DNA of 64,000 nt. Origin: an uncultured delta proteobacterium (GTDB taxonomy: Bacteria > Desulfobacterota > Desulfobulbia > Desulfobulbales > Desulfocapsaceae). How positions within the stretch are numbered: position 1 is the stretch's first letter; every line of letters begins with the position of its first letter. The position numbers were made by a program, and so were the translations under genes. Under the pieces are notes generated by a model. The model was not told the origin of the DNA. It did not search any database and worked only from the letters and a program-made list of their open reading frames with translations. Shown in pieces: positions 37,853-52,449 of the stretch. The stretch lies in NCBI GenBank assembly GCA_963718195.1, contig CAVQYQ010000004.1, forward strand, positions 94,048 through 158,047, given 5' to 3'.

Positions 37853-39187
37853 CTATTGATTTTTCTTAAAGGCTGTCTTGGGGAAAAAACAATATGGGCA
37901 CTCATCTGGTGGCATTTCATCATAGTGGACGTAACCACAGATCCTGCACCTCCAGACACTGCCAATTATCGATGCCTGCTGCCCATCGCCTGGATCGTGC
38001 TCCCGATGGAGCGGCAGGTCCTCCAGCAGGGGAAGGCTCGGCTGATACTCTTTGAGCAGATAATCCGCCAGGATGATTCGTTGAATTTCGCTGGTGCCCT
38101 CATAGATCCTCAGGAGGCGAACATCGCGCAGCAATTTTTCAATGGGAAACATCTTGGTGTAACCGTATCCACCAAAAATCTGTAAGGCCTCGTTGACCAC
38201 CTCCAGAGCTGTCTCTGTCGCATAGAGTTTGCTGATCGAAGCACTGACTCTTCCGTCCTGCTGTTGGTCCGAATCCCAAGCTGCTTTCCAGGTCAGCAAG
38301 CGGGCTGTTTCCACCTTCTGATACATCTCCGCCAGCTTAAACTGAATTGCCTGAAAAGCACTGATTGCCATACCGAAAGCACGCCTTTTTTTCGCGTAAT
38401 CAAGTGCATATTCCGTCGCCGCTCTGGCTGCTCCGACGCCAAAGCTGCCAATGATTGGCCGGGTGCGGGCAAAGGTCTTCATTGCAAGCACAAATCCTTC
38501 GCCAGGCAAAGCCAAAACATTTTCCTTTGGCACCCGTACATCTTTGAAATTAACCCCTACCGTGTTGGAACAGCGCTGACCCATTTTGGGAATAGCACGT
38601 CCGATTGTCACCCCGGGCCATTTTGTCTCTACCAGGAACGCGCAGATTCCCTGATGCTGGCTTTCAGGGTCTATGGACGCAAAGACCGACAGGTAATCAG
38701 CGACACCGCCGTTGGTAATCCAATATTTTGTGCCGTTAAGAAGATAGTCATCACCTGCAGCCTCAGCCCTGCAGCGAATGCCAGCCACATCAGAACCCAT
38801 TAATGGTTCAGATGTGGCAAAAGCGGCTAATTTGAAATCCCTGGCGATTTGAGGGAGGTATTTCTGTTTGGCATAGCTGTTGGTGGAGAGCAAGATCGGC
38901 TCCATTCCCAGCGAACTGTCGAAGATCGATGTCGCCAGCCCCGGACAAGCTGCGGCTATTTCTTCGGTAATCAAAGACGACTCTAACAAGCTCAGCCCTT
39001 GACCGCCAAATTCTTTTGGAATATCGCTGCCTATCATCCCGGCATCAAAAGCCTTGCGTATCACTTTCAGGGGAAGTTCATCTTTTTCATCGTAGTACCA
39101 GGCAACAGGTAAAACTTCTTTCAGAGCAAAAATGCGCGCCTTTTGCTGCAGGTCCAGTTGATCTTGGGTCAAACGGAAATTGAGCAT
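37853..39187 (-). CDS. Acyl-CoA dehydrogenase fused to a C-terminal rubredoxin-type domain
   Basis: Full ACAD core (TSEPLMGSD, YWITNG, YEGTSEIQR), then a linker of about 35 aa and WRCRICGYVHYDEMPPDECPYC (CxxC...CxxC). Confidence 0.85.
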   Translation of the reverse strand: MLNFRLTQDQLDLQQKARIFALKEVLPVAWYYDEKDELPLKVIRKAFDAGMIGSDIPKEFGGQGLSLLESSLITEEIAAACPGLATSIFDSSLGMEPILLSTNSYAKQKYLPQIARDFKLAAFATSEPLMGSDVAGIRCRAEAAGDDYLLNGTKYWITNGGVADYLSVFASIDPESQHQGICAFLVETKWPGVTIGRAIPKMGQRCSNTVGVNFKDVRVPKENVLALPGEGFVLAMKTFARTRPIIGSFGVGAARAATEYALDYAKKRRAFGMAISAFQAIQFKLAEMYQKVETARLLTWKAAWDSDQQQDGRVSASISKLYATETALEVVNEALQIFGGYGYTKMFPIEKLLRDVRLLRIYEGTSEIQRIILADYLLKEYQPSLPLLEDLPLHREHDPGDGQQASIIGSVWRCRICGYVHYDEMPPDECPYCFFPKTAFKKNQ

Positions 39188-39232
39188 AAGCGTTTCTCCA
39201 TCGGTTTTGGTTAAAAAGAGCGAACGAGCTGT

Positions 39233-39848
39233 TCAACTTTTCTCTCTGATTATCTCAAGGTTTATTAGGTCGTGCCGAAGTTTCTCAGCCGTGGTAAAGA
39301 GCAGTGCCCGCATGCCAAGATCCTTGGCTGCCAGAACGTGTTCCATCGTGTCATCAATAAAAACAGCTTCTGACGCTGTAACACCCAATCGCTCAAGGGC
39401 TCTAAAAAAGATTGCAGGCTCAGGTTTTGCCACCCCTTCGTCCCCGGAACAGATAACCTGTTTAAACAGCCAGCGAATGTCCCATTCTTTTAACCACTGG
39501 TCCAGGCCTGAGGGGTGATTTGAAACGACAGCGAGCTGATAGTGGTCTTTTAGCAACGTGAGGAGTTCAAAGACACCTGGGTTGATCTTTTCATCACGGT
39601 AGTAGCGTTTCTGGAATAATATGCAACGCTGAAGGATCATCCAGATTTAACTGTGGACCGATTGCCTGCCAGTAAGCCGCCATGTCGATCTCACCGACAA
39701 GTGCCTTTTCCCAGAAAGGCGACTCGAACATAATGGTGTTGATGGTTCCTGGTAACAGATTCAGTGCAGACTCATATGTTTCAAAAAGACTTTTCGGTTT
39801 CTGTGCAGAGATAACACGACCAAAATCGAATAAAAGCGCCTTAATCAT
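39233..39848 (-). pseudogene. HAD-superfamily phosphatase split by a frameshift between 39594 and 39640
   Basis: The N-terminal ORF has motif I, LLFDFGRV (DxG variant). The C-terminal ORF, in another frame, continues with FQKRYYRDEKINPGVFELL, motif II VVSN and motif III/IV K...FIDD. The two ORFs overlap by 47 nt. Confidence 0.75.
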
Positions 39849-39905
39849 CGTGGAGTGGTCTTTTCTTCTCTTGCCGAACTATTTAACAGCTCCAGTTCAG
39901 GATTC

Positions 39906-41003
39906 TCAGCAGAACTCGTTGACAAATTTTGATATCATATGAAACGCCTCGTCGTCAGTGAACTGCTCCGGAGGATGTTTACAGAAAAACGCCGAAGGTC
40001 CGAGCAGTGCTCCTGCTTTCCCACGGTCAAGGGCCAGCCGGGCACAACGGATCATATCAATAACCACACCGGCCGAATTTGGTGAATCTTCGACCGAAAG
40101 CCTCATTTCAATATCAATAGGGACATCACCAAAAATCTTCCCTTCCATGCGGATAAAACCAACCTTGTTGTCCCTTTGCCATTGTACATAATCACTGGGA
40201 CCTATGTGGATACGATCATCGACAAGCCTGCGCGCAGCTACCGATTGAACGGCCTCTGTCTTTGACTTCTTCTTGGATGCGAGCCTGGTCCTGTCGAGCA
40301 TATTGAGAAAATCCGTATTGCCGCCGGTATTGAGCTGATAGGTCCGTTCCAACTCGACGCCACGTCGCCGAAAGAGATCTGTGAGGGCGCGGTGAACAAT
40401 GGTGGCGCCCATCTGGGACTTCACATCATCACCAATCACGGGGAGCCCCCGGGTGGTAAACCGGCCGGCCCAGCCAGGATCACTGGCAATAAATATCGGG
40501 ATACAGTTGACCACCGCCACACCTGCCTCTAGGGCACAATTCATATAAAATTCAGTAGCCTGCTGGGACCCGACCGGCAGAAAATTCACCATAACCTGGG
40601 CCCCGCTGTTTCTCAGCTCCCCAACGACTGCTGCCATAGAGGCGTCCGGCTCTTCACTTGGAACAAATCGATACTTGGGATCAAGGTCCGCCATATGCGG
40701 TGATACACCATCAAGCAGGGCTCCCATATGAACGGTAACGCCAGTTTCAGGCACTTCAGGATAAAAGAGTTTGGTGCAGTTTGGGGGCTGCAATATCGCC
40801 TTCCCCACATCCAGACCAACCTTTCGTTGGTCTATATCAAACGCTGCCGCAATGGTGATATCGGTCGGATTGTAACCACCCAGGTCCCAGTGCATCAGGC
40901 CATTGACCTGTTTGGTTTGATGCTTTTTATAGAAGTATAAACCTTGTATCAAGGCACTGGCACAGTTACCGACACCGACAATAGCAATTTTGATTGTCTC
41001 CAT
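39906..41003 (-). CDS. ino1: myo-Inositol-1-phosphate (inositol-3-phosphate) synthase
   Basis: 365 aa with N-terminus IKIAIVGVGNCASALIQGLYFYK and overall collinearity with bacterial and archaeal MIPS. Confidence 0.9.
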   Translation of the reverse strand: METIKIAIVGVGNCASALIQGLYFYKKHQTKQVNGLMHWDLGGYNPTDITIAAAFDIDQRKVGLDVGKAILQPPNCTKLFYPEVPETGVTVHMGALLDGVSPHMADLDPKYRFVPSEEPDASMAAVVGELRNSGAQVMVNFLPVGSQQATEFYMNCALEAGVAVVNCIPIFIASDPGWAGRFTTRGLPVIGDDVKSQMGATIVHRALTDLFRRRGVELERTYQLNTGGNTDFLNMLDRTRLASKKKSKTEAVQSVAARRLVDDRIHIGPSDYVQWQRDNKVGFIRMEGKIFGDVPIDIEMRLSVEDSPNSAGVVIDMIRCARLALDRGKAGALLGPSAFFCKHPPEQFTDDEAFHMISKFVNEFC

Positions 41004-41062
41004 TAAAGCTCCTTATCTCCTTTTATGCAGGAAATTTTACTCGATGAAAGGCCTCCGCAAGT

Positions 41063-41743
41063 TCAAATGCTGTACCCTTTGCCATCTTCTGGCATCTCTT
41101 TTGTAACCATATCTTCAAGATCGCCGACATTGAGCTCTTTAACCTGGCTTGCGTGACATTTTAATGCTGCGAGTTTCTGGGAAAATGTCTCCGAGATATC
41201 GACATGATAGTTGATATCTTCAGCACCAAAAAAAAGCACTTCTTTTACCTTATGAGGCTCCAGACCTTCGGCAAGCATCTGCGGGTAGGCCATGTGATCT
41301 CGGGCATATGGGAAAAGGGCATCCATCACGACCTGACCGACAATCCGGTGATCGCGGTGCCAAAGATAACGCCGATATGGATCGGAACTGAGCACCATTT
41401 GTGGTCTAAAACGCCTTATCAGGCGAACGATTTCTTCCCGAAAAGCAGGCGTCTCCTCCAACTGCTGATCCGGCTTTCCCAGAAAAACAACATCTGCAAC
41501 GCCAAGCAGACGTGCCGCTTTCCTCTGTTCCTGCTGACGTATCCGGGCAAGCTCCAGAGCGGTCACCGCTCGATCACTGGTCCCCTTGTCACCGTTTGTA
41601 CACAATACATAGACGACTGATTTGCCTTCAGTGATCCACCTGGCAATGCTGCCGGCTGCCCCAAATTCGGCATCATCGGGATGAGCAATGATGACCATAA
41701 TGTCACATGTAATAGACATAAAACACCCCAGAATATTACTCAA
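41063..41743 (-). CDS. PIG-L/LmbE-family N-acetylglucosaminyl deacetylase (MshB/BshB-like)
   Basis: AHPDDAEFG metal motif and the HRDHR motif. It overlaps the upstream GT4 gene by 4 nt. Confidence 0.85.
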   Translation of the reverse strand: MSNILGCFMSITCDIMVIIAHPDDAEFGAAGSIARWITEGKSVVYVLCTNGDKGTSDRAVTALELARIRQQEQRKAARLLGVADVVFLGKPDQQLEETPAFREEIVRLIRRFRPQMVLSSDPYRRYLWHRDHRIVGQVVMDALFPYARDHMAYPQMLAEGLEPHKVKEVLFFGAEDINYHVDISETFSQKLAALKCHASQVKELNVGDLEDMVTKEMPEDGKGYSI

Positions 41744-42951
41744 GTATGAAATAACAAAGTATCATAGACTTTCAGCAGCGACGTCACTGCCTTTGCCCAG
41801 GTAAAGCCGCTGACGCTTTGTCTGATCTTTTCAGCGTCCTGTTGTTTTGCCAGCACCAGTCCACTCGATATCGCCTCCGCCAAACTATGATCATCGCCTG
41901 CTGCTGCCAGAAAACCGTTCGTCCCCTGCAAAATGACGTGAGGGGCAATACCCACCGGTGTGGAGGCGACTGGTGTGCCGGATGCCAAAGCCTCCAGGAT
42001 GACCAGGCCAAAGCTTTCGTAACGTGACGAAATCACCACCACATCCGCTTTTTGATAATACCGTACCATCTGTGAATGCTCAACCGGGCCAATCAGCTGC
42101 ACCTGCTCGCCGATTCCCAGTTCATTCACATAGTGTTCGATCTTTTGATAAGGATCACTCGACGGCCCGTCTCCACCAATGATAACCAGCTCAATCTCAT
42201 TACTGTCTGCAAGATGATAGACACTTCTTATCGCCAGATCCACACCCTTCATGGGATCAAATCTGCCGACAAACAGTACGAGTGGCCTTGCCTCTAAACC
42301 ACCGTTTTTGCAATTTACTGGGGCTGGGTCAGCTGTTTTAAAACGATCCATATTCACGCCCCAGGGAATATGGTAGATAGCAGCTCCCTCATCGGTAATC
42401 ATTGAAGCAAGATACTGACCCTCCTCCTCGGTAGGTACGATCACCCCGTCGCAGCACTGCAGCAGACGAGTTTCCTCGTCAATACGGTTTTGTTCCTCGA
42501 CATGGCCTGGGAAGGCAGCCATTTTAACCGCAGCGAGGGTGTGAAACGTAACTGCATGAGGGCAGTGCCAGAGCCTCTTTAATTGTTCACCCACCACGCC
42601 TGACAGCCAGTAATTGCTATGGATCAGATCATAAGAACCACCTTCTTGCCTGATAAAATTATCAATTACCGTGCAAAACCTGTCTAAATGCTCAAAAAGT
42701 GCGGACCGCGAGAGGCCTTCTGTCCCTTCAACAGCAAGATTTATGACCCTGACATGCGGCGCGTACGCAACAACCTGCTGCCAACCGTGGGTTGTTTGAC
42801 GCGTAAAAATGTCCACATGATGGCCCCTTCTGCCAAGTTCTGATGCCAGTTCCAGTAAATAGATACTCATTCCCCCGGTGTCGGCAGACCCCAGCCGACC
42901 AAGCGGACTGGAGTGCACAGAAAGCATGGCAATTCGAAGGTTTCTTCGCAT
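41740..42951 (-). CDS. GT4 glycosyltransferase, MshA-like (candidate inositol-phosphate GlcNAc transferase)
   Basis: IAMLSVHSSPLGRLGSADTGGMSIYLLE and DLIHSNYWLSGVVG...HTLAAVK are closely collinear with the corresponding MshA segments ([37 protein letters not shown]...HTLAAVK). The C-terminal E-x7-E region reads ESFGLVILEALASGTPV. Confidence 0.75.
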   Translation of the reverse strand: MRRNLRIAMLSVHSSPLGRLGSADTGGMSIYLLELASELGRRGHHVDIFTRQTTHGWQQVVAYAPHVRVINLAVEGTEGLSRSALFEHLDRFCTVIDNFIRQEGGSYDLIHSNYWLSGVVGEQLKRLWHCPHAVTFHTLAAVKMAAFPGHVEEQNRIDEETRLLQCCDGVIVPTEEEGQYLASMITDEGAAIYHIPWGVNMDRFKTADPAPVNCKNGGLEARPLVLFVGRFDPMKGVDLAIRSVYHLADSNEIELVIIGGDGPSSDPYQKIEHYVNELGIGEQVQLIGPVEHSQMVRYYQKADVVVISSRYESFGLVILEALASGTPVASTPVGIAPHVILQGTNGFLAAAGDDHSLAEAISSGLVLAKQQDAEKIRQSVSGFTWAKAVTSLLKVYDTLLFHT

Positions 42952-42985
42952 GATCAGCAGTCTTCCCGGGATGACCTGTCTCGTG

Positions 42986-43987
42986 TTATTCTCGTTGAAT
43001 AATACATTTCATCAGAGGAACTTCCATTCCACCAAGATGGAATTTGTACCTCTCCGTACCACCTAAAAAATCATATACCGCCTTCCCTGCCTCAATACTG
43101 GCGCGGATTGTTTCAATTTTGCTGACCACCCCAAGGGATATGGTGCGAAACCGGGGATCAAATCCGTTATTGTAAAGATAGGTGGTTTTGCCAATTTCAA
43201 CACAAAATACTGCGGCCACCTGCGAATCATTAACAGTAAGCGTATGAAGAGACAACATATCGAACTGCGAAAGTTCGGCTGCAAGGGTGCGAAAAAAGCC
43301 CTCTCTCGCATCGGTCATGAATTTTTTTTTATCCTCGCGACTCTGGCGAAACAGGTGAACAAATGAGTCCATGGCCGCTTCTGTCTCAGACCCTGTCCTG
43401 GCATTAGACTGAACACGCACTCCGGCCTCATTTGCCCGTCGAAGCTTTCGCCTCACTTCATGGCGTTGTTTACCAACCAGACTCTGGATATACTCCTCCC
43501 AGCTGGCTGGCAGGTCAGTTTGTACCGATGCAGTCTCTTGAGTAACAGAAACTCGCCACCCCTTTTCCCGGGCGGCTGGCACAAGATCATGATAGACGAG
43601 GGAATCTGGGCGTACCCGTTCCAAGGTCAGACAATGCACACCCTCTGCTTCCAGAAAACCAAGGATCTCCCGGGAAAAAAAATCCCGGCCCCCGGGCGCT
43701 GCGATAAAATCGCCAGTGTCACAGAGGTCAATAGAACCAATGAACCTGGCAATACCTCGTCTCACCATCAATGGCGCCACGCCCAGCGGTCGTGTACCTT
43801 CCGATACCAACAATATGAGCGACTCGTTGTCAGCTCCAAAATGGCGCCACCAGGATTTCAGCCAGGGCGGGGTGGTAAACGGGTTGTGCCACTGCCAGTT
43901 TTCACCATACTTGCTCCAGAGAGAAAAGAGCTCCGGTAATGTCGTTCTTTTTATCATCACCCCTGTTGCCGAACCCGTTCTCTTCAT
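42986..43987 (-). CDS. CelD/FemAB-like GNAT-fold acyltransferase
   Basis: 333 aa with N-terminus NPFTTPPWLKSWWRHF and C-terminus YLYNNGFDPRFRTISLGVVSKIETIRASIEAGKAVYDFLGGTERYKFHLGG, typical of the CelD/BioF2-like GNAT family. Confidence 0.6.
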   Translation of the reverse strand: MKRTGSATGVMIKRTTLPELFSLWSKYGENWQWHNPFTTPPWLKSWWRHFGADNESLILLVSEGTRPLGVAPLMVRRGIARFIGSIDLCDTGDFIAAPGGRDFFSREILGFLEAEGVHCLTLERVRPDSLVYHDLVPAAREKGWRVSVTQETASVQTDLPASWEEYIQSLVGKQRHEVRRKLRRANEAGVRVQSNARTGSETEAAMDSFVHLFRQSREDKKKFMTDAREGFFRTLAAELSQFDMLSLHTLTVNDSQVAAVFCVEIGKTTYLYNNGFDPRFRTISLGVVSKIETIRASIEAGKAVYDFLGGTERYKFHLGGMEVPLMKCIIQRE

Positions 43988-45031
43988 CGTACCGGGCTAT
44001 CCTCTTTGCTGCTGTCATTAATAGAAACACTGCAGCCGGTACGCGCAGCCTCTGCCAGCGCATCGAGAACCGCCATGTTGTTAATACTGTCATCGATCGG
44101 CACCATCGGCTCACCCCCACCAAGAACCAGATCACCAAAATGTTCAATCATCAACCGGTACTCATCGACACCAGGAATAACGATCTTCTCGGCAATTTCT
44201 TCAGCACCTGGCCGGTAGTATATTACAGCGTCTTTTTCCCACGGAACAAAGGCATCCTGAGGAAGATCGATAACGCCATCACTGCCAACAATACTATAGG
44301 TTTGTTGCAGCCCTGAACAGAAACTTGCCTCTATCGCAGCCAGCCTTCCATGAGCAAAGAGAAGATGAGCAACCAGGTGAATATCCACATCACTTTCAGG
44401 TCTGCGCACCGCCAGGGCTTGCACCCTGACAGGCTCTGCCTCCAGCAGCCAGCGGGCAACACTTGTTCCATAACAGCCAACGTCCAGAAGCGCCCCACCG
44501 CCGTGTGGAGAAACTGAGCCGGTGATTTGCACCGCTTTTCAGTACCGCTTCAGCCATGGAAAAACAAAATGCGGCGCGAACCAGCCGGGGCTTACCGATT
44601 GCTCCTGCAGAAATCATCGTTTTTATTCGTTGCGTGCGTGGATGGAACCGATACATCAGTGCCTCCATCAGGACACGGTCTGCCGATAAAGCCAGGGTTT
44701 TCATTTCCCTGGCCTCTGCAGCATTGCAGGCCAGTGGTTTTTCGCACAGCACATGTTTTCCAGCAAGGAGTGCCTTCTCTACCCACCTCAGGTGCAGATG
44801 ATTGGGCAGCGGAATATATACCGCATCCACACCAGGGTCCTGGACAACTTCATCATAACTCTGATAAATGGAGTCAATACCAACCTGCCGGGCAATGTCA
44901 TCGGCTTGATCAGGGCGCCGGGTACCAAGAGCACGAATTCTGCCGTTGTGTGAATGGGTAATTGCCGGCATCACGCATTTGCGGCCAATCATGGCATTGC
45001 CAAGAATGCCCCAGTTCAGTTTATCGCCCAT
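43984..45031 (-). pseudogene. Gfo/Idh/MocA-family oxidoreductase split by a frameshift near 44536..44539
   Basis: The N-terminal ORF has a Rossmann domain (WGILGNAMIGRK, GKHVLCEKPLA). The C-terminal ORF, in another frame, continues with GGGALLDVGCYG. Removing one base of the T4 run (A4 on the coding strand) at 44536..44539 gives a continuous reading, AVLKAVQITGSVSPHGGGALLD. The start at 45031 (MGDKLNWGILG) overlaps the upstream stop. Confidence 0.75.
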
Positions 45032-46697
45032 TGATCGTCTCAATCCTCCCGCCATATGCCATTGACCGGGCCGCCGCCTCAAGAATGGAGACGACTTTCA
45101 CTGAATCAGCAAGGGGAGCCGCGAGCGGCTCACCCCAGAAAAGATGATCCGCAAGGTTGTAGTGAAACGCCCATGGGTGTCTCTCTGGCAAAACAGGTTT
45201 TATCTGTTCGACATCGCCTGTCGAACGGCGCCGGTAAACGGTGATCTCCGGCATCATCTCTGTTGCGGGAATTTCTGTTTTGGTAAAGTAATGGAGCGGG
45301 TCTGCAGCAAAAGCTGTAATGTCTCGCCAGTCGCCACGGATTGCCCCTGAAGATCCAAGGATATACCATTTCGGCTTGTGGGCTGCGGCGATATCCGAGT
45401 GCATAAACTCGGCCTCCCGGCCATCTTCAAACCGTATCTGAATACGTTCCTGATCACCGTTGGTCACATCATGCCAGACGCGCTTATGTCTTGTGCCAAT
45501 TACCGCCTCAACCGGATACGGCATGAGCCCAACGAGCCAATCGATATAGTGGGCACCCCAGTCAAAAGATGTGCCTCCCGATACCGGCGCATGGGAATGC
45601 CAGTAGCCGCAGGGGTGATGAAATCCTCCAACAAAGGTCTCCAGATAAAACGGCTCACCGATCATTCCTTTGGCCAGCATATCTTTTATAGCGATGAAAT
45701 CGGCATCCCAACGACGGTTCTGATGGCAGCTCAAGTGTCGTGAACAACGCGCTGCCATTTCCTCCATTGCCCCGGTTTCTTCCCTGCTCAGGGCAAGCGG
45801 TTTTTCACACAACACATGCTTGCCGGCTGCCATCATCTGCATTGACAGGCGGGCATGACTGTTTGGAGCGGTTGCGACAATGACCAGGTCGACATGCTCG
45901 TCTTCAGCCATCGCCGCAGCATCAGCATAGGTCGTTATTCCAGGAAAGTCCAGTGTTGCCTGGTCAAGCTGTCCGGGATTGAGATCACAGGCGGCAACCA
46001 GGTGAAGCCCGGGGGTATTCTCTGCCGCACGCCCGTGAAATTTGCCCACCGAGGGTGCGTAACCGAGAATACCGATACCCAGCGAGACATCAGCAGCTGG
46101 CGCCTCGTTTTGAAAAGAGCGAAGCAGACGATAAAACGTCTGGCGAATCATCTGCGCACCAAAATCCTGCAGCGTTGTGGAGGCAAGGTAGCCTTTTCCA
46201 TAGGGGCGAGTAGTCAGAACACTGCTGTGGGCGTAATGCCAATCAGCATAGAGAACAGTCTCGGTATCCTCAGCTGTCACGTGCAATGGCTGGTAAAAAC
46301 CGTCAACATAAACGGCATCAGGCAGACGGACCCCGAGAAAGTTGTCTGAATCTGTAAACAGGACACGGAGCTCAGAGCGGGGACCGACCGGGCCCGGTTG
46401 TACACCAAACGCTTCAGGCAAGCGAATATCGTTCAGCCCGACCAGGGCAAGCCAAGCCCCGCCAGCTCTTACAAACTCAAGCATTCGATCGATTTCTCGT
46501 TTGCCAGTCAATTTCCCGGCGGTAAGTATGGCATCAATATCACTTAGGTCTGCAGGCAATTCGGATAGGTATGATGTCCGGACATGATCCATACCACCTC
46601 CAAATTCTGGCCATGGAAAATCGGTGCCGCACTCTACTTCTGTAATTATCAAAACAGAAAGCTCAGGATGATTGATCATTGTCTTCCTCTTTGCCAT
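45021..46697 (-). CDS. Fusion of a ThuA-like (class-I amidotransferase-fold) domain and a Gfo/Idh/MocA oxidoreductase
   Basis: The N-terminal 200 aa or so contain FVRAGGAWLALVG and YGKGYLASTTL (ThuA-like, tentative). The C-terminal 350 aa contain IGILGYAPSVGKFH and GKHVLCEKPLAL (Gfo/Idh/MocA). Confidence 0.65.
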   Translation of the reverse strand: MAKRKTMINHPELSVLIITEVECGTDFPWPEFGGGMDHVRTSYLSELPADLSDIDAILTAGKLTGKREIDRMLEFVRAGGAWLALVGLNDIRLPEAFGVQPGPVGPRSELRVLFTDSDNFLGVRLPDAVYVDGFYQPLHVTAEDTETVLYADWHYAHSSVLTTRPYGKGYLASTTLQDFGAQMIRQTFYRLLRSFQNEAPAADVSLGIGILGYAPSVGKFHGRAAENTPGLHLVAACDLNPGQLDQATLDFPGITTYADAAAMAEDEHVDLVIVATAPNSHARLSMQMMAAGKHVLCEKPLALSREETGAMEEMAARCSRHLSCHQNRRWDADFIAIKDMLAKGMIGEPFYLETFVGGFHHPCGYWHSHAPVSGGTSFDWGAHYIDWLVGLMPYPVEAVIGTRHKRVWHDVTNGDQERIQIRFEDGREAEFMHSDIAAAHKPKWYILGSSGAIRGDWRDITAFAADPLHYFTKTEIPATEMMPEITVYRRRSTGDVEQIKPVLPERHPWAFHYNLADHLFWGEPLAAPLADSVKVVSILEAAARSMAYGGRIETINGR

Positions 46698-47934
46698 CGG
46701 CGAGCTGCCAACGATAGCCGGAATCTGTATCTTCTACCATGATGCCGGCACGACTCAGGGCATCACGCAGGGCATCGCCTAATTCAAATTGTTGTGCGTC
46801 TCTCAGCTGCTGGCGGGTTGCAAGAAGGCTGTCGACAATTGGACCGATCGCCTTTGCCAGTGCAGATCTGGTCAGTGCAGTCCTGGTTCCGAGTTCCGCC
46901 AGCTGTTCCCGAAAGAGATCCCTGGCCTGGGAAATTAACTCCGGGTTCTCCCTGTTTCCCTCTGCCTGCCAGAGGATACGGTCCAATTCCAATAGTCCAT
47001 TAGCGGATTGTCTGAGATCATCAGTAGCAATGGCCTGCTGAAAATCCTCTTTAAGATCATGCACCGCGCACCAGAAATCCGATTCATCGTCTTGCTGAGC
47101 TGCAACCTTTAAACCGGAGGCTGACTCAACTGCAGCCGCAACGAGGCCCCCGCCCTCTCCCTGCAAGAGTTCGATGGGGTATGTTTTGTTGCAGACAAAA
47201 TAATGGGTATTACCACAGTGTTGCAACACCGCCCTGCCAATACCATAAATCTGAAAAGAGTTGCTGGAAAAATCAATGATACAGGCGGTATGTTCATCGA
47301 GGCCAAGCACCGGTACGGGTTCTTCCAGCATTGATACGAGTTCATCAAACCGGGAACTACCCATAAAGCAGCGGCTGGTATCATGGGTTCCGCCTTCGGC
47401 ATTATTCCAATGGGGGATTACGATGATTTGCAAACCGAATGGACCGAGAATATCGAGACCTGCAACCCAGTGCAGCGGCTGACCGACTTTATATATTTCA
47501 TATACCGGAAGTGTAAAACGGCCGGCAGTCAGTGCAGCGGCGCTTGCCGCCACGAGACAGCCACCTTTTCGAATATGGTTGATAAAAATCTCCGGAATCC
47601 GGGATTTGGAGAGTTGTTCGACTGCATAGGTGGGACTACCTGGTCCCATCAGAATATAGTCAGCGCCTCGTAATTTATGATAGGCCTCGGCAGCATCAAC
47701 CTCAGAAATCGTTTCAGACGATTTATACGAAGCGATGTCCAAACGGCATCCCACCCGCTTGCGAAAATATTCAATCGCAGTTGCGCCGATCTGCTCCGCA
47801 TTAAGCTGAAACCCGGCTGGAGTGTCGAGAAAAAGTGCAGATCTGTCGGCGGGGAATTGAGAGAGAAGCATTTTGTGGACCTCAACCATAGTGGCTGTAA
47901 GCTCACCTGATCCCATGAGTGCAAGTGTACCCAT
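46663..47934 (-). CDS. Peptidase-S51-like domain fused to a cysteinyl-tRNA-synthetase-type C-terminal (DALR/anticodon-binding-like) domain
   Basis: The N-terminus is LALMGSGE...ILMGPGSP...VAASAAAL (S51/cyanophycinase-like fold with a degenerate Ser motif). The C-terminus is FQQAIATDDLRQSANGLLELDRIL...LLATRQQLRDAQQFELGDALRDALSRAGIMVEDTDSGYRWQL. It follows the CysRS C-terminal pattern F..A..DDFNT..A...LFEL.R......R...R..K.F..AD.IRD.L...GI.LEDT..G..W. Confidence 0.55.
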   Translation of the reverse strand: MGTLALMGSGELTATMVEVHKMLLSQFPADRSALFLDTPAGFQLNAEQIGATAIEYFRKRVGCRLDIASYKSSETISEVDAAEAYHKLRGADYILMGPGSPTYAVEQLSKSRIPEIFINHIRKGGCLVAASAAALTAGRFTLPVYEIYKVGQPLHWVAGLDILGPFGLQIIVIPHWNNAEGGTHDTSRCFMGSSRFDELVSMLEEPVPVLGLDEHTACIIDFSSNSFQIYGIGRAVLQHCGNTHYFVCNKTYPIELLQGEGGGLVAAAVESASGLKVAAQQDDESDFWCAVHDLKEDFQQAIATDDLRQSANGLLELDRILWQAEGNRENPELISQARDLFREQLAELGTRTALTRSALAKAIGPIVDSLLATRQQLRDAQQFELGDALRDALSRAGIMVEDTDSGYRWQLADGKEEDNDQSS

Positions 47935-48022
47935 AACCTGTCGCGTCCTCTAGAGCTGCAGTTTCTGTAAATGTCGTAATGTGGTTTTAAGCAGGATGGT
48001 AAGTAAATCATTACCATTTTCT

Positions 48023-48751
48023 TTACAGTAGGTCAATTTGCGGGGAAGGCAACTTCTCATTTGAAATTACTGCACCTGCAGCATAGGAGTGGACATTTCC
48101 CTGATCATAGAGCACGACTCTTCCACCGCCATACACTGTCCATCCACCATAAACCGCATCGTTGATGATGCCGGTTTCCTCGTCAATGCCGAGTATACTG
48201 AACCCCGGCAGCAGGTGGAGTAATCTTTTGACCCAGGCAATACCAACACTATTGTGATGTGGGATGAGGCAAATCCCCGCCATGAGATTAAGTCCGGCCA
48301 CGACCGTTTGAGAAGAAGGGTCGTAAAATGTTTCGCACAGCACCATTGCTCCAGCACTGCTACCGCCAATCACCCCACCAGTCTGGTACACAGAGCAGAT
48401 ACTCTCCCAGCTATGTGTTCCCCTCAACGTCTCTGCCAGGTGAAAAGGAAAACCGCCGAGCAAAAAAACAAGGCGCGAACACCTCAACTGCATGCTTAAT
48501 TCTTGGTCATCTGCTGAATCCCGATCGATCACTGGCCTGCATACCACGTTGCGTGCACCAATCCCGCGGAACCATTGGACACCGTTTTGGCCGGCACGAT
48601 GATGGTTGTTATCAGGCGCCGCTGCCGCAGGGATAATATCGACTGCAACATGCTCGCCACCGGCAAGAACCAACGCCCTGCTGTCAGCATCAATCATACG
48701 ACCGCTAAACTCAGCCCCACCTTCCAATAGTAGATAGCCCATGCAATGCAC
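48023..48751 (-). CDS. Peptidase S51 family protein (cyanophycinase / dipeptidase E-like)
   Basis: LLLEGGAEF, LVFLLGG and the canonical nucleophile motif GGSSAGAMV. Confidence 0.7.
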   Translation of the reverse strand: MHCMGYLLLEGGAEFSGRMIDADSRALVLAGGEHVAVDIIPAAAAPDNNHHRAGQNGVQWFRGIGARNVVCRPVIDRDSADDQELSMQLRCSRLVFLLGGFPFHLAETLRGTHSWESICSVYQTGGVIGGSSAGAMVLCETFYDPSSQTVVAGLNLMAGICLIPHHNSVGIAWVKRLLHLLPGFSILGIDEETGIINDAVYGGWTVYGGGRVVLYDQGNVHSYAAGAVISNEKLPSPQIDLL

Positions 48752-49021
48752 CCCAGCATATTGTTGGAGCAGCCCCTGGAAGAATCCTCTTGATGTAAAC
48801 CAGGAGATAATTATACAAGTAGTAGCATATCTATCTTGAAATTTCAGGAAGAAACCATCCTCAATCTGTTATCTCAGCCCACCTGCTTCCCCCTGTCGGA
48901 ACTGGTACGCTCAACAATAGACCTTTTACCTAAAGTAGGTTATTCTGCTCTTTTAGTGCAATTCACAAAGTTGAAGCTCATACCAGAAAGATCATGAAAA
49001 CTATAAATACGGGAGCGCACT

Positions 49022-49749
49022 ATGACCAAACGAATCGTCATCTATGGTGGCTCAGGGGGGATCGGCTCGGCAACAGCGAGGCTTCTGCGGGCAGATGGGC
49101 ATGAACTCCATTTGGCCGGAAGGTCTGAGGATAAACTTGCAACACTCTCATCAGAACTCAAAGCCGGGTATACCGTGGGCGATGTGTGCGATGCAGGCCT
49201 CTTCACTCAGGTGGTCAATGATTTTCCCGGTCCATGGGATGGTCTTGTCTACAGTGTTGGCACCATTAATCTTGGCAGTATAAGGCGACTTTCCGACACC
49301 GATTTCCTCCACGATTTTCAGTAAATGCAATGGGAGCGGCCCTCGCTATACAGTCCGGCCTGCCAGCGCTAAAAAAGAGCAATGGTGTCCCCTCGATCGT
49401 TCTGTTTTCCAGTGTCGCATCACTCCAGGGCTTCACCTTCCATGGTTCCATGGGAATGGCAAAAGGGGCGGTCAATGGGTTGACGCTTGCGCTTGCTGCA
49501 GAGCTGGCACCAAACGTTCGGGTCAATGCTATTGCCCCATCGTTAACCAGGACCCCCCTTGCTCAATCAATATTGGCAAACGACAAGGTTGCCCAGGCTG
49601 TCACGGATCTTCATGCCTTAAAAAAACTGGGCACCAGTGACGATATAGCCAATCTTGTGGTGTACCTGCTCTCGGATCAGGCGGGCTGGGTCACCGGGCA
49701 AATCATCAGTGTTGACGGGGGTCGTTCAACTCTGAGACCACAGGGCTAA
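49022..49749 (+). pseudogene. Short-chain dehydrogenase/reductase split by a 1-nt frameshift at about 49315..49330
   Basis: ORF 1 has GGSGGIGSA and ends ...DFLHDFQ*. ORF 2, in another frame, continues MGAALAIQ...SSVAS...GSMGMAKGAVNGL...NAIAPS. Adding one T to the T4 run at 49315..49318 gives DFLHDFSVNAMGAALAIQ, the usual SDR ..vN..g.. segment. Confidence 0.8.
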
Positions 49750-49861
49750 ACGAAACAGAGACAATAATCAAATAGAACGCCTGAGCTGAAATACAGAGGA
49801 TTTCAGCTGAATCTTTGCGAATATCAGGTAGTTTATTTCTTTGCAAAACAGGAGGAGATGT

Positions 49862-51424
49862 ATGGATGTTGTAATGTTGTCCCGATTGCAGTTTGCCTTT
49901 ACAATCATGTTTCATTACATATTTCCACCCCTGACCATTGGTCTCGGGGTGATTATTGCCTATCTTGAGACCAGATACTATCTCACGAGAAAGCCGGTCT
50001 TCGCTATCGCCACCCAATTCTGGACCAAAATCTTTGTCTTAAACTTCGCCATAGGAGTCTCCAGCGGCATCGTCATGGAGTTCCAGTTCGGCACCAACTG
50101 GGCGACCTATTCCCGTTTTGTCGGTGATGTTTTCGGTAGCGCTCTTGCTGCAGAAGGTATATTTGCATTTTTCCTTGAATCCGGCTTCCTGGCAATTGTC
50201 GCATTCGGTAGAGAAAAGGTAAGTGCTGGTCTCTATCTTTTCAGCATGTATATGGTGGCCCTGGGCTCAATCTTTTCCTCCATATGGATTGTGGTCGCCA
50301 ACAGCTGGCAGCAGACACCGGCCGGACACCACATCGTCGATATACTCCGACCAGACTCCTCAGCAGGCGGCTCCGGCGAAATGATTCCCTGGGTCGTCGA
50401 TGGAGTCGTTCAGCGAAGGGCGGAAATCGTAGATTTCCTGGCCATGGTCTTCAACCCGTCAACGGTGCAGCGCCTGAGCCATGTCCTTCTGGGCTGTGCA
50501 GCCGTTGGCGGCTTTTTCGTACTGAGTATTTCCGCCTACTATATACTGAAAGACAAGCATCATGAGTTTGCCCGCCATTCTTTTAATGGGGCACTCCTTT
50601 TCAGCCTTGCAGCCTCACTTGGCCTTGCCATTAATGGTCACACCCAGGCCCAAGATGTTTATAGAAATCAACCGGCAAAACTCGCAGCCTTTGAAGGCCA
50701 TTATACAACCGGCCGCGCCGATTTAAATCTGGTCGGCTGGCCAAATGAACGCGAAGAGCGTATCGATTATGAGTTGAGTCTTCCCGGCGGTCTCAGCTTT
50801 ATGGTCTTTGATGATTTTACCTTCAGCAAACCCGTAGTCGGGCTTGACCGATTCAAACCAGAAGACCGGCCTCCCCTGCTGATTCCATTTTTTTCCTGGC
50901 GCCTGATGGTTGGCTTTGGCGGCCTAATGATTGTCCTCTGCACGGCTGGCCTCGTCTTCAATCTTAAAAAACAACTCGCCCAGAAACGTCCGCTCCTCTG
51001 GTCCTTTGTGTTTGCCATCGGCTTTGTCATGGTCGCAAACCAGAGCGGCTGGATAGCGGCCGAAGTTGGCCGACAGCCATGGACAGTCCATCCGCCGGTT
51101 ATCTGGAATGAGAGTGGCACCGATTTAGTCACCGCCGCCGATGGGTTGTATCAGTATGACGAAAGTCTTGGTTTACGAACAAGCAACTCATTCAGTGCGG
51201 CTGTCAGCGTTGAAGAGGCCAGGACGTCACTCATCCTTTTTGCTATTCTCTACGCTGCCCTGACAGCGGTTTGGATCATCGTGCTCGACAGAAAAATACG
51301 CATCGGTCCGGAACCTCTGCCGGCAGCTGCAGCTTCCGGGGGGACAGGTGTGGTGCAGGCGGCAACCGACAGGCAGCATGCCCGGTTGAGTGACAAAGAA
51401 AAAGACCAAGGAGGTGCATCGTGA
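49862..51424 (+). CDS. cydA: Cytochrome bd-type quinol oxidase subunit I
   Basis: [24 protein letters not shown]-terminus and [12 protein letters not shown]. The start is set at the ATG at 49862, preceded by AGGAGG; the track starts at a TTG at 49841. Confidence 0.9.
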
Positions 51425-52449
51425 GTTCTGAAATCCTCTGCATTGTCTGGTTTGTAATACTGAATATTCTGCTCATCGGCTATGCAATACTCGATGGCTT
51501 TGATCTCGGAGTCGGCATCCTGCATCCCTTTGTTGCAAAAACCGACCGGGAAAGACGACTGGTCATGAACAGTATCGGGCCGCTCTGGGATGGCAACGAA
51601 GTGTGGCTTGTGACGTTTGGCGGGGCATTGTTCGCCATGTTCCCGAATGGTTACGCCTCGATTTTCAGTGCATTTTATCTCCCCTTTGTCCTGCTTCTTT
51701 TCGCCCTCATTTTTCGGGCAGTATCTCTGGAATTCCGTTCAAAACGAACGAACACCTTCTGGCGCAACTTCTGGGACCTGCTCTTTTTCATCGGATCCAC
51801 CATGGCGACATTCCTGTTTGGCGTAGCGGTTGGTGCAACTATGCAGGGATTGGAACTCTCCGAGCTGGGAGACTATCAGGGGACCATGCTTGATCTTCTT
51901 TCTGGTTTCAGTGTGAGTGTGGGGTTGTTTAGCGTGGCACTTTTTGCCATGCACGGGGCCATTTATCTGTATTTAAAAACTGAAGGGGAATTGCAGCAAC
52001 GTCTTTTCACCTGGATGAAAGGAACCTATTATCTCTATCTCGCGCTCTTTATTATCGTTACCCTGTGGTCGGTTTTTCTGGTGCCTGCATCATTGCAGCA
52101 TTTTGGTGACTATCCACTCCTTTGGCTGGTGCCTCTAATCAATGTTCTGGCAATCGCCAATATTCCCAGGGCAATAGCCAGAAAAAAACCTCTTTATGCC
52201 TTTTTTAACAGTTGCTTTACTATTGCAGCGCTGGTTTTCCTGTTCAGTGCCGCTATTTTTCCTGATCTTTTACCTGCATCAAACAATTCAGCATTTTCCA
52301 TTACAATATTCAACGCTGCATCCAGCATGCTGACCCAGAAGATCGGACTCGTTATCGTAGCACTTGGAATGCCGATGGTTCTATCCTATACCATTCTGAT
52401 ATACTGGACATTCCGGGGGAAAGTTGAATTGGGTGAGGGCAGCTATTAA
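51421..52449 (+). CDS. cydB: Cytochrome bd-type quinol oxidase subunit II
   Basis: 342-aa polytopic protein with a GTG start overlapping the cydA stop by 4 nt, and a typical CydB N-terminus (LDGFDLGVGIL...GPLWDGNEVWL). Confidence 0.9.
   Translation: MSSEILCIVWFVILNILLIGYAILDGFDLGVGILHPFVAKTDRERRLVMNSIGPLWDGNEVWLVTFGGALFAMFPNGYASIFSAFYLPFVLLLFALIFRAVSLEFRSKRTNTFWRNFWDLLFFIGSTMATFLFGVAVGATMQGLELSELGDYQGTMLDLLSGFSVSVGLFSVALFAMHGAIYLYLKTEGELQQRLFTWMKGTYYLYLALFIIVTLWSVFLVPASLQHFGDYPLLWLVPLINVLAIANIPRAIARKKPLYAFFNSCFTIAALVFLFSAAIFPDLLPASNNSAFSITIFNAASSMLTQKIGLVIVALGMPMVLSYTILIYWTFRGKVELGEGSY

Follow-up and report, generated by a model that had tools for sequence, protein, structure and literature searches.

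A peptidase S51-type protein fused to the C-terminal region of cysteinyl-tRNA synthetase in mycothiol-type gene clusters without MshC

Cyclodipeptide synthases take the aminoacyl group from an aminoacyl-tRNA (aa-tRNA) onto an active-site serine, where it is held as a covalent intermediate. They are listed as one class of aa-tRNA-dependent enzyme in a 2026 review that also covers the GNAT/Fem and PEARL classes and in which the terms S51 and peptidase do not occur (PMC12945691). Among S51 enzymes, the acyl-enzyme of PepE (triad Ser120-His157-Glu192) holds one N-terminal amino acid, with its amine free, and MccG cuts an aminoacyl group from a nucleotide (PMC9239234). Here we describe a gene from an uncultured delta proteobacterium (Desulfobacterota; assembly GCA_963718195.1, contig CAVQYQ010000004.1, positions 94,048 to 158,047) whose product joins an S51-type domain to the C-terminal, tRNA-binding region of cysteinyl-tRNA synthetase (CysRS). 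We refer to the gene, at 46663..47934 on the minus strand, and to its product as FUS; the whole stretch of 64,000 nucleotides that was analysed is the window, and all coordinates refer to it.

FUS lies in a gene cluster resembling that for mycothiol, minus the cysteine ligase MshC. The reading that we favour, tentatively, is that FUS is a tRNA-Cys-directed acyl-enzyme catalyst that provides the cysteine-adding step of a mycothiol-like pathway, and thus a functional replacement for MshC.

Domain architecture of FUS

The FUS open reading frame begins with ATG and encodes 423 amino acids. Its parts are:

46663..47934, minus strand: FUS, comprising an S51-like domain, a linker and a CysRS-type helical bundle plus anticodon-binding domain (open reading frame, Pfam, NCBIfam, PDB profile, AlphaFold and Foldseek)
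47155..47934, minus strand: S51 (PepE/cyanophycinase-like) domain, residues 1-260 (Foldseek, triad conservation)
47542-47544, 47410-47412 and 47293-47295, minus strand: putative triad Ser131, His175 and Glu214 (codons checked by translation)
47083..47154, minus strand: linker, residues 261-284, of low confidence and poorly conserved (predicted local distance difference test score, pLDDT, <50; variable columns in alignment A1)
46798..47082, minus strand: four-helix region, homologue of the CysRS helical bundle, residues 285-379 (profile to E. coli CysRS 332 to ~428)
46699..46797, minus strand: CysS_C anticodon-binding domain, residues 380-412 (PF23493 match, residue mapping to E. coli CysS)

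Two alignments were used, A1 with 20 close FUS relatives and A2 with 66 diverse relatives. In an AlphaFold model made with A1 (pLDDT 75.9), an alpha/beta N-terminal domain is followed by a disordered linker at 261-284, four long helices (286-303, 307-326, 331-351 and 356-379) and, at the end, a small domain of a helix plus a hairpin. No extra fused domains turned up in longer family members (451-565 aa), which hold only S51 and CysS_C. The closest relatives among the top matches share an acidic C-terminal tail (KEEDNDQSS-like; residues 413-423, window 46666-46698) that follows the anticodon-binding domain and is missing from more distant relatives.

The C-terminal region matched Pfam CysS_C (PF23493) over residues 364-409 (E=3.3e-6, 27.5 bits, gathering score 23). 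On the NCBIfam cysS model TIGR00435, residues 286-410 correspond to positions 338-464 of 466 (E=1.2e-4), and the score of 21 bits against a cut-off of 340 covers positions 338-464 only. In PDB, the A2 profile found CysRS structure 8qhp with E=1.1e-14. E. coli CysRS, as 1li5/1u0b, followed with E=3.7e-12, and of its 461 residues only 332-460 are covered, the stretch to which the matches to CysRS are confined. A hidden Markov model (HMM) of the C-terminal region only matched E. coli CysS with E=6.8e-20, and Foldseek with the FUS model also found the CysRS-tRNA-Cys complex 1u0b over the C-terminal 130 columns. Judged by these comparisons, the homology of FUS to CysRS is well above chance and spans residues 285-412, equivalent to the helical bundle and the anticodon-binding domain.

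A first-pass annotation, made from the DNA letters and translations, had described FUS as a fusion of an S51-type fold with this CysRS region and had named profile HMMs and structural alignment as the check on both domains. Profile HMMs, the PDB profile and Foldseek all bear the fusion out, with CysS_C above its gathering score and S51 structures filling the top 20 Foldseek places. The annotation was also right that the class-I catalytic domain is missing. Neither HIGH nor KMSKS occurs in FUS, and no homologue of the CysRS catalytic domain was found in the whole 64-kb window. FUS is an S51-fold protein of putative activity and, having no such domain, not a member of the CysRS family.

The anticodon-contacting residues of CysRS are well described. 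In the 1U0B complex, R427 and D436 hydrogen-bond the anticodon base G34, W432 stacks on G34 and the contacts of R423 are water-mediated (PMC12684709). The anticodon specificity of CysRS has been re-targeted by mutating R427, W432, D436 and R439 (PMC13449415). Alignments with E. coli CysS place FUS R374, R378, F383 and D387 at R423, R427, W432 and D436, and R390, D402 and W409 at R439, D451 and W458. We scored conservation in 121 sequences, namely the window protein and 120 FUS representatives with 28-58% identity to it. R374, R378, D387, R390, D402 and W409 are each kept in 116-120 of the 121; at position 383, 117 sequences have an aromatic residue (W, F or Y). Positions nearby vary freely. 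This conservation of the G34-contact equivalents is the strongest indication that the FUS module may still read tRNA-Cys.

At the N-terminus, Pfam Peptidase_S51 matched residues 4-220 with E=7.9e-4 and 19.6 bits, slightly under the gathering score of 23.9, and a PF03575 match is on record for many FUS homologues. The A2 profile matched the S51 protein 6nqc with E=1.2e-12. The top 20 Foldseek matches of the FUS model, all of them S51 structures, ranged from E=1e-12 to 5e-6; the best was again 6nqc (TM 0.80, E=1.4e-12), and others were PepE 6a4r and cyanophycinase 3en0/7uqw. The first-pass annotation had also noticed that the first ~260 residues resemble the 242-aa S51 protein encoded next to FUS, a likeness that tblastn recovers at 23.7% identity over 262 aa (E=3.8e-7).

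The same annotation took the nucleophile motif, AASAAAL, to be degenerate and the S51 domain to serve binding and not hydrolysis. The first claim is half right, since the flanking glycines of GxSxG are gone but the serine is retained in 120 of the 121 sequences. The second claim is not supported, the rest of the putative triad being conserved too: His175 is kept in 121/121 and Glu214 in 117/121. The family HMM aligns S131 and H175 to PepE S120 and H157, and all three residues align to the CSAGAM, IPHF and GIDE positions of 6nqc. The correspondence of Glu214 to PepE E192 is putative, by motif position only. FUS apparently carries an active serine-hydrolase domain, and its other invariant motifs (GSGE, DTPxGFQ, GPGSPTY, PVYEIYK and PHxxNAEGGxHDT..C) point to an elaborate, conserved active site.

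A family-specific insertion absent from 6nqc, NAEGGTHDTSRC, lies 3' of the catalytic His codon (residues 176-189, window 47368-47409). H184, D185 and C189 within it are near-invariant, H20 and H215 are also conserved, and the loop is of low model confidence. Together these five residues could form a metal site, possibly for a CysRS-like recognition of the thiolate.

The gene cluster and the FUS family

The genes that accompany FUS in the window are:

48023..48751, minus strand: stand-alone S51 (cyanophycinase-like) protein, 242 aa, with canonical GSSAG, the first gene of the apparent operon (PF03575 E=1.5e-10, TIGR02069 51 bits)
45021..46697, minus strand: Gfo/Idh/MocA oxidoreductase, 558 aa, whose start overlaps the FUS stop by 35 nt (family matches)
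43984..45082, minus strand: second Gfo/Idh/MocA oxidoreductase, split into two overlapping open reading frames (1-nt insertion near 44513)
42986..43987, minus strand: Fem-type double-GNAT transferase (Acetyltransf_6/FemAB_like), 333 aa (PF13480 E=5.9e-27; PF04339 28.3 bits, threshold 27)
41740..42951, minus strand: GT4 glycosyltransferase, MshA-like (TIGR03449 283.7 bits, the best match, below the cut-off of 462.5)
41063..41743, minus strand: PIG-L family deacetylase, BshB/MshB-like (PF02585 E=5e-33; TIGR04001 109 bits)
39906..41003, minus strand: inositol-3-phosphate synthase, Ino1 (TIGR03450, mycothiol_INO1, 408 bits, E=4e-122, cut-off 638)
39257..39848, minus strand: HAD-type phosphatase, candidate N-acetylglucosaminyl-inositol phosphate phosphatase, frameshifted near 39621 (tblastn in two frames)

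The genes follow one another in this order, with FUS between the S51 gene and the 558-aa Gfo gene. NCBIfam scores for MshA, the BshB1/MshB-type PIG-L and mycothiol_INO1 are all below the equivalog cut-offs. An HAD-type phosphatase also lies 3' of Ino1 in related loci. The first-pass annotation had called this a glucosaminyl-inositol (GlcN-inositol) type of cluster lacking MshC, a description that stands, as the window holds no CysRS-like catalytic domain.

We then counted the linkage of these genes to FUS in the 52 related loci whose downstream sequence is 7 kb or longer. The GNAT was present in 43/52, the MshA-like GT4 in 41/52, PIG-L in 36/52 and the long Gfo in 36/52, and 46/52 had at least one of GNAT, GT4 and PIG-L. 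The small S51 gene, counted in 65 loci, lies directly upstream of FUS in 30. A CysRS- or MshC-like catalytic domain gave one weak match across the sequence of 80 related loci. The FUS clusters correspond to a mycothiol-type gene set from which the cysteine ligase is missing.

Additional genes near the FUS clusters include an HAD or histidine phosphatase, a GloB-like metallo-beta-lactamase-fold hydrolase (12-13 loci) and, beside the cluster in three loci (including L041 and L048), a Grx-TrxR fusion of glutaredoxin with a thioredoxin-reductase-like flavoprotein, a candidate for reducing the disulfide of the predicted thiol. An MshD-like tandem GNAT occurs in 5/80 related loci and is absent from the window. 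The GloB-like, MshD-like and Grx-TrxR genes are hints of thiol use. All five loci with the MshD-like gene also hold FUS and the Fem-type GNAT, which rules out FUS as a simple alternative to MshD.

In five Desulfobacterota loci (L011, L016, L018, L025 and L032) an alpha/beta-fold hydrolase gene directly follows GT4, in the PIG-L slot, and the locus has no PIG-L; the hydrolase may have displaced the deacetylase there. Orthology of this hydrolase with one adjacent to FUS in Acidimicrobiia was considered and rejected, the similarity being generic (27-41%, short stretches).

The second Gfo gene carries a 1-nt insertion near 44513 (TTT versus TT) relative to the closest relative, L001, and its halves are in one frame in L001 and L002, so that the split is either a sequencing error or a pseudogene. 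The HAD phosphatase gene likewise has a 1-nt insertion near 39621 relative to L001. Two frameshifts within one operon suggest assembly or homopolymer errors. Similarity of the 558-aa Gfo to an acidimicrobial orthologue (L082) reaches back to about residue 124 and that to others begins at about 182-192. Its N-terminal extension of ~200 aa has no Pfam match even at E<=10, and a ThuA-like identity for these residues was dropped for that reason.

No dedicated tRNA-Cys gene was found in 60 loci or the window, no Rfam element, including riboswitch and T-box, at E<=1 in 38500-50000, and a promoter and terminator scan around FUS gave counts at shuffle level. In the flanks, translations read by eye showed an acyl-CoA-dehydrogenase-like protein with a rubredoxin-like CxxC...CxxC tail (37853-39187, minus strand) and a pair resembling cytochrome bd oxidase subunits (49841-52449, plus strand).

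A scan of 1.84 billion representative proteins placed 561 clusters (50% identity) in the FUS family at E<=1e-30, and a motif scan of one genome per species found FUS in at least 586 genomes. Carriers are mostly Desulfobacterota, plus Nitrospirota/Thermodesulfovibrionia; a distant branch occurs in Acidimicrobiia, including the cultured Acidithrix ferrooxidans (WP_052604962.1), and Ktedonobacterales. The proteins are labelled at source as 'hypothetical', 'cyanophycinase-like exopeptidase', 'peptidase E' or 'CysS/YqeB C-terminal domain-containing protein'. E. coli YqeB, tried as a comparator because of the last label, gave no match to the C-terminal HMM of FUS. Nothing relevant came out of literature searches on the fusion and on a tRNA-dependent or Desulfobacterota thiol pathway. 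The family is widespread, uncharacterised and unusually suggestive.

Proposed reaction and competing readings

The favoured reading starts from what was observed, namely the homologies of the two domains, the conservation of triad and anticodon contacts, and gene linkage. In the reaction that we propose, Ino1, the MshA-like GT4, the phosphatase and PIG-L would make GlcN-inositol. The CysRS-type module of FUS would dock the GCA anticodon of Cys-tRNA-Cys, and the linker, being flexible, would bring the S51 domain within reach of the 3' end that carries the amino acid. With His175 and Glu214 activating it, Ser131 would then attack the cysteinyl ester to give Cys-O-Ser131, which the free amine of GlcN-inositol would resolve to cysteinyl-GlcN-inositol (Cys-GlcN-Ins). 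Finally, the Fem-type GNAT, or the MshD-like tandem GNAT where present, would acylate the cysteine amine or share the step. That FUS binds tRNA, that it forms an acyl-enzyme, what it uses as acceptor and that the product is a thiol are inferred. The chemistry is reasonable because PepE forms an acyl-enzyme and MccG cleaves an aminoacyl-nucleotide.

Several points weigh against this proposal. We know of no S51 enzyme that acts as a transferase or on tRNA. The conservation of Arg, Asp and Trp in the C-terminal module could be partly structural, since the same residues are the hallmark of the CysS_C fold, and the FUS model is of only moderate confidence (pLDDT 75.9). MshC or BshC could be encoded elsewhere in carrier genomes. 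The Fem-type GNAT, structurally of the aa-tRNA-dependent type by its model, is found without FUS in 40 Chloroflexota-type loci and could be the sole cysteine ligase. Lastly, distant FUS genes in Acidimicrobiia and Ktedonobacteria are not beside GT4 or PIG-L genes. This is a caveat for the first-pass annotation, which had tied its reading to an inositol or thiol context; the related loci counted above mostly keep the cluster (46/52).

The Fem-type GNAT matched nothing in PDB by sequence, and structure comparison was used instead. A high-confidence model of a Chloroflexota orthologue (pLDDT 94.9) has as its Foldseek neighbours FemX with peptidyl-RNA, MprF and Sbb17/Sba18 (E ~1e-11), with acetyl-CoA tandem GNATs clearly lower; the first-pass description of the GNAT as Fem-like was well founded. 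Sbb17 and Sba18, whose crystals were grown with the amino sugar streptothrisamine, are peptide synthases that depend on aa-tRNA; Orf11, an enzyme of the same type, moves glycine from Gly-tRNA to streptothrisamine (PMC12945691). Because of these structural neighbours and the Orf11 precedent, the GNAT is a credible second user of aa-tRNA in the cluster.

A GNAT-family search of metagenomes yielded the 40 metagenome or Chloroflexota-type loci (L090-L170, at least 6 kb each), whose GNAT genes are related to that of a Chloroflexota genome and which keep the order Fem-type GNAT, MshA-like GT4 (323 bits on the MshA model), MshD-like tandem GNAT (103 bits on the MshD model TIGR03448, cut-off 163), PIG-L and GloB-like hydrolase. 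The MshD-type gene is present in 31/40, and neither FUS nor CysRS-like genes were found in any of the 40. Beside the cluster in L090, the Chloroflexota reference locus, is the gene of a DinB protein whose best match is mycothiol S-transferase. This sister cluster itself looks like an MshC-free mycothiol-like pathway. Conversely, the Fem-type GNAT is missing from three loci (L015, L023 and L070) that hold FUS together with the two Gfo genes, GT4 and further genes of the cluster (PIG-L, HAD and/or metallo-beta-lactamase-fold), and here FUS is the sole candidate ligase of the locus. Because FUS and the GNAT occur both jointly and separately, either enzyme may add the cysteine.

The main rival reading, conceivable if unlikely, makes the Fem-type GNAT the Cys-tRNA-dependent GlcN-inositol ligase and gives FUS, as an enzyme specific for tRNA-Cys, an accessory part in that step. 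FUS could capture Cys-tRNA-Cys or present it, or it could hydrolyse tRNA-Cys that is wrongly acylated or N-acylated and so keep the single tRNA-Cys pool ready for translation. Such a division of labour would suit the structural neighbours of the GNAT, the aminoacylation of an amino sugar from aa-tRNA by Sbb17/Sba18 (PMC12945691), the Chloroflexota-type clusters that do without FUS, and the 43/52 loci in which FUS and GNAT are adjacent or close. It fits poorly with the three compact clusters that hold FUS and no Fem-type GNAT and with acidimicrobial FUS genes that have no GNAT neighbour; moreover, a plain Cys-tRNA hydrolase would be wasteful, and known Fem enzymes do not need an anticodon-binding partner.

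The distant family members bear on a second alternative. Three acidimicrobial loci (L082, L085 and L086) have FUS after a long Gfo, a Gfo and an alpha/beta hydrolase gene, in that order, and the long Gfo has 39-40% identity to the 558-aa Gfo of the window. In L083 only the alpha/beta hydrolase adjoins, overlapping the FUS start codon. FUS follows CtaA, ClpS and DUF2017 in L085 (Acidithrix ferrooxidans), L086, L173 and L174, with an unannotated 169-aa protein in the DUF2017 slot of L173. Genes for tRNA-Glu, Asp and Phe follow FUS in L085 and L086. The E. coli gene for the aa-tRNA protein transferase, aat, also lies near clpS, and the neighbourhood of ClpS and FUS may be coincidental synteny. 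The FUS gene of the Ktedonobacterales member lies among F420-related genes. FUS is thus not limited to the GT4/PIG-L cluster. Because the mycothiol genes of Actinomycetota are dispersed, these neighbourhoods neither support nor exclude a thiol role.

The occurrence of FUS apart from biosynthetic genes in Actinomycetota and Ktedonobacteria would fit a role in turnover or homeostasis. FUS might then be a PepE-type amidase that frees the N-terminal cysteine of Cys-GlcN-Ins or a related thiol and so makes stored cysteine available, while the CysRS-like domain senses uncharged tRNA-Cys and turns the hydrolase on in cysteine shortage. We consider this improbable. S51 enzymes do hydrolyse aminoacyl-amide bonds with a free alpha-amine (PMC9239234), and the FUS triad is intact. 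However, FUS of the close relatives stands at or near the head of an apparent biosynthetic operon and overlaps the next gene, the separate canonical S51 gene that is often present could itself be the amidase, and we found no precedent for such a tRNA sensor.

Very improbable is that FUS is an ordinary S51 peptidase whose CysRS-derived helices are only a structural or oligomerisation module that binds no RNA. In its favour, neither a tRNA-Cys gene nor an RNA element is linked to the clusters, inspection shows a net acidic C-terminal region, and the residues conserved in that region coincide with the Pfam hallmark positions. Against it, in relatives with 28-58% identity the Arg, Asp and aromatic residues of the G34-contact surface are 95-99% conserved amid positions that vary freely, and the equivalent region of E. 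coli CysRS, also acidic by inspection, binds tRNA.

Significance and comparison with known systems

If FUS does add cysteine taken from tRNA, the S51 fold would be a catalytic fold to add to those that divert aa-tRNA from translation (Fem/GNAT, cyclodipeptide synthase and PEARL). CysRS would have been split two ways in evolution, with MshC keeping the catalytic half and the FUS family the tRNA-reading half. The favoured reading also predicts that anaerobic Desulfobacterota and Nitrospirota contain a low-molecular-weight, mycothiol-like thiol not yet described; we know of no characterised thiol buffer for either phylum, and a literature search found none. Even if the Fem-type GNAT is the ligase, the clusters describe a thiol pathway that lacks MshC and is probably tRNA-dependent. 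A broader claim, which we regard as rather doubtful, is that FUS founds an aa-tRNA-dependent class of its own, in which an S51 hydrolase guided by a synthetase-derived anticodon reader draws on Cys-tRNA-Cys to form a covalent cysteinyl-enzyme and ligates cysteine to GlcN-inositol, giving an ATP-independent, MshC-free thiol route in sulfate reducers, Nitrospirota and some Actinomycetota and Chloroflexota.

Compared with CysRS, FUS shares the homologous region (FUS 285-412, E. coli CysRS 332-460) and the conserved equivalents of the G34-contacting residues and of D451 and W458. It is without the class-I catalytic Rossmann domain (HIGH, KMSKS and zinc site) and the stem-contact fold, and the S51 hydrolase domain and flexible linker take the place of these missing parts.

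With the S51 peptidases (PepE, CphB/CphE, MccG and the acI-B1 actinobacterial 6NQC), FUS has in common the fold (TM 0.65-0.80 relative to the targets) and the positions of Ser, His and Glu, and the cleavage of an aminoacyl-nucleotide bond by MccG means that such chemistry exists in the family. FUS differs in its nucleophile elbow, A-A-S-A-A instead of GxSxG, in the invariant insertion NAEGGxHDT..C after the catalytic His, and in its C-terminal tRNA-recognition module, and the window sequence is slightly below the Pfam S51 gathering threshold.

Among the enzymes that consume aa-tRNA, the Fem-type transferases (FemX, MprF, PacB and Orf11/Sba18/Sbb17) use it as an activated donor, as FUS would in the proposed reaction, and Orf11 and Sba18 acylate an amino sugar. 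Theirs is a GNAT fold with direct attack, no covalent intermediate and no anticodon-binding domain, and the member of that family in the cluster is the neighbouring GNAT, not FUS. The cyclodipeptide synthases share the aminoacyl-serine intermediate drawn from aa-tRNA that is proposed for FUS, whereas their fold is a Rossmann fold like that of class-I aminoacyl-tRNA synthetases and their products are cyclodipeptides. YbaK, ProXp and AlaX are stand-alone trans-editing deacylases that act on the aminoacyl ester of particular tRNAs. They differ from FUS in having unrelated folds and no anticodon module of synthetase origin, and in lying outside small-molecule biosynthetic clusters.

MshC is the ATP-dependent Cys:GlcN-Ins ligase of mycothiol biosynthesis; it keeps the CysRS catalytic domain and works without tRNA, whereas FUS keeps the tRNA-recognition half only and has no adenylate-forming domain, and the catalytic parts of the two are not homologous. 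Both are nevertheless CysRS-derived, the product proposed for FUS would likewise be Cys-GlcN-Ins, and the genomic context of FUS is one of MshA-like, MshB-like, Ino1 and sometimes MshD-like genes.

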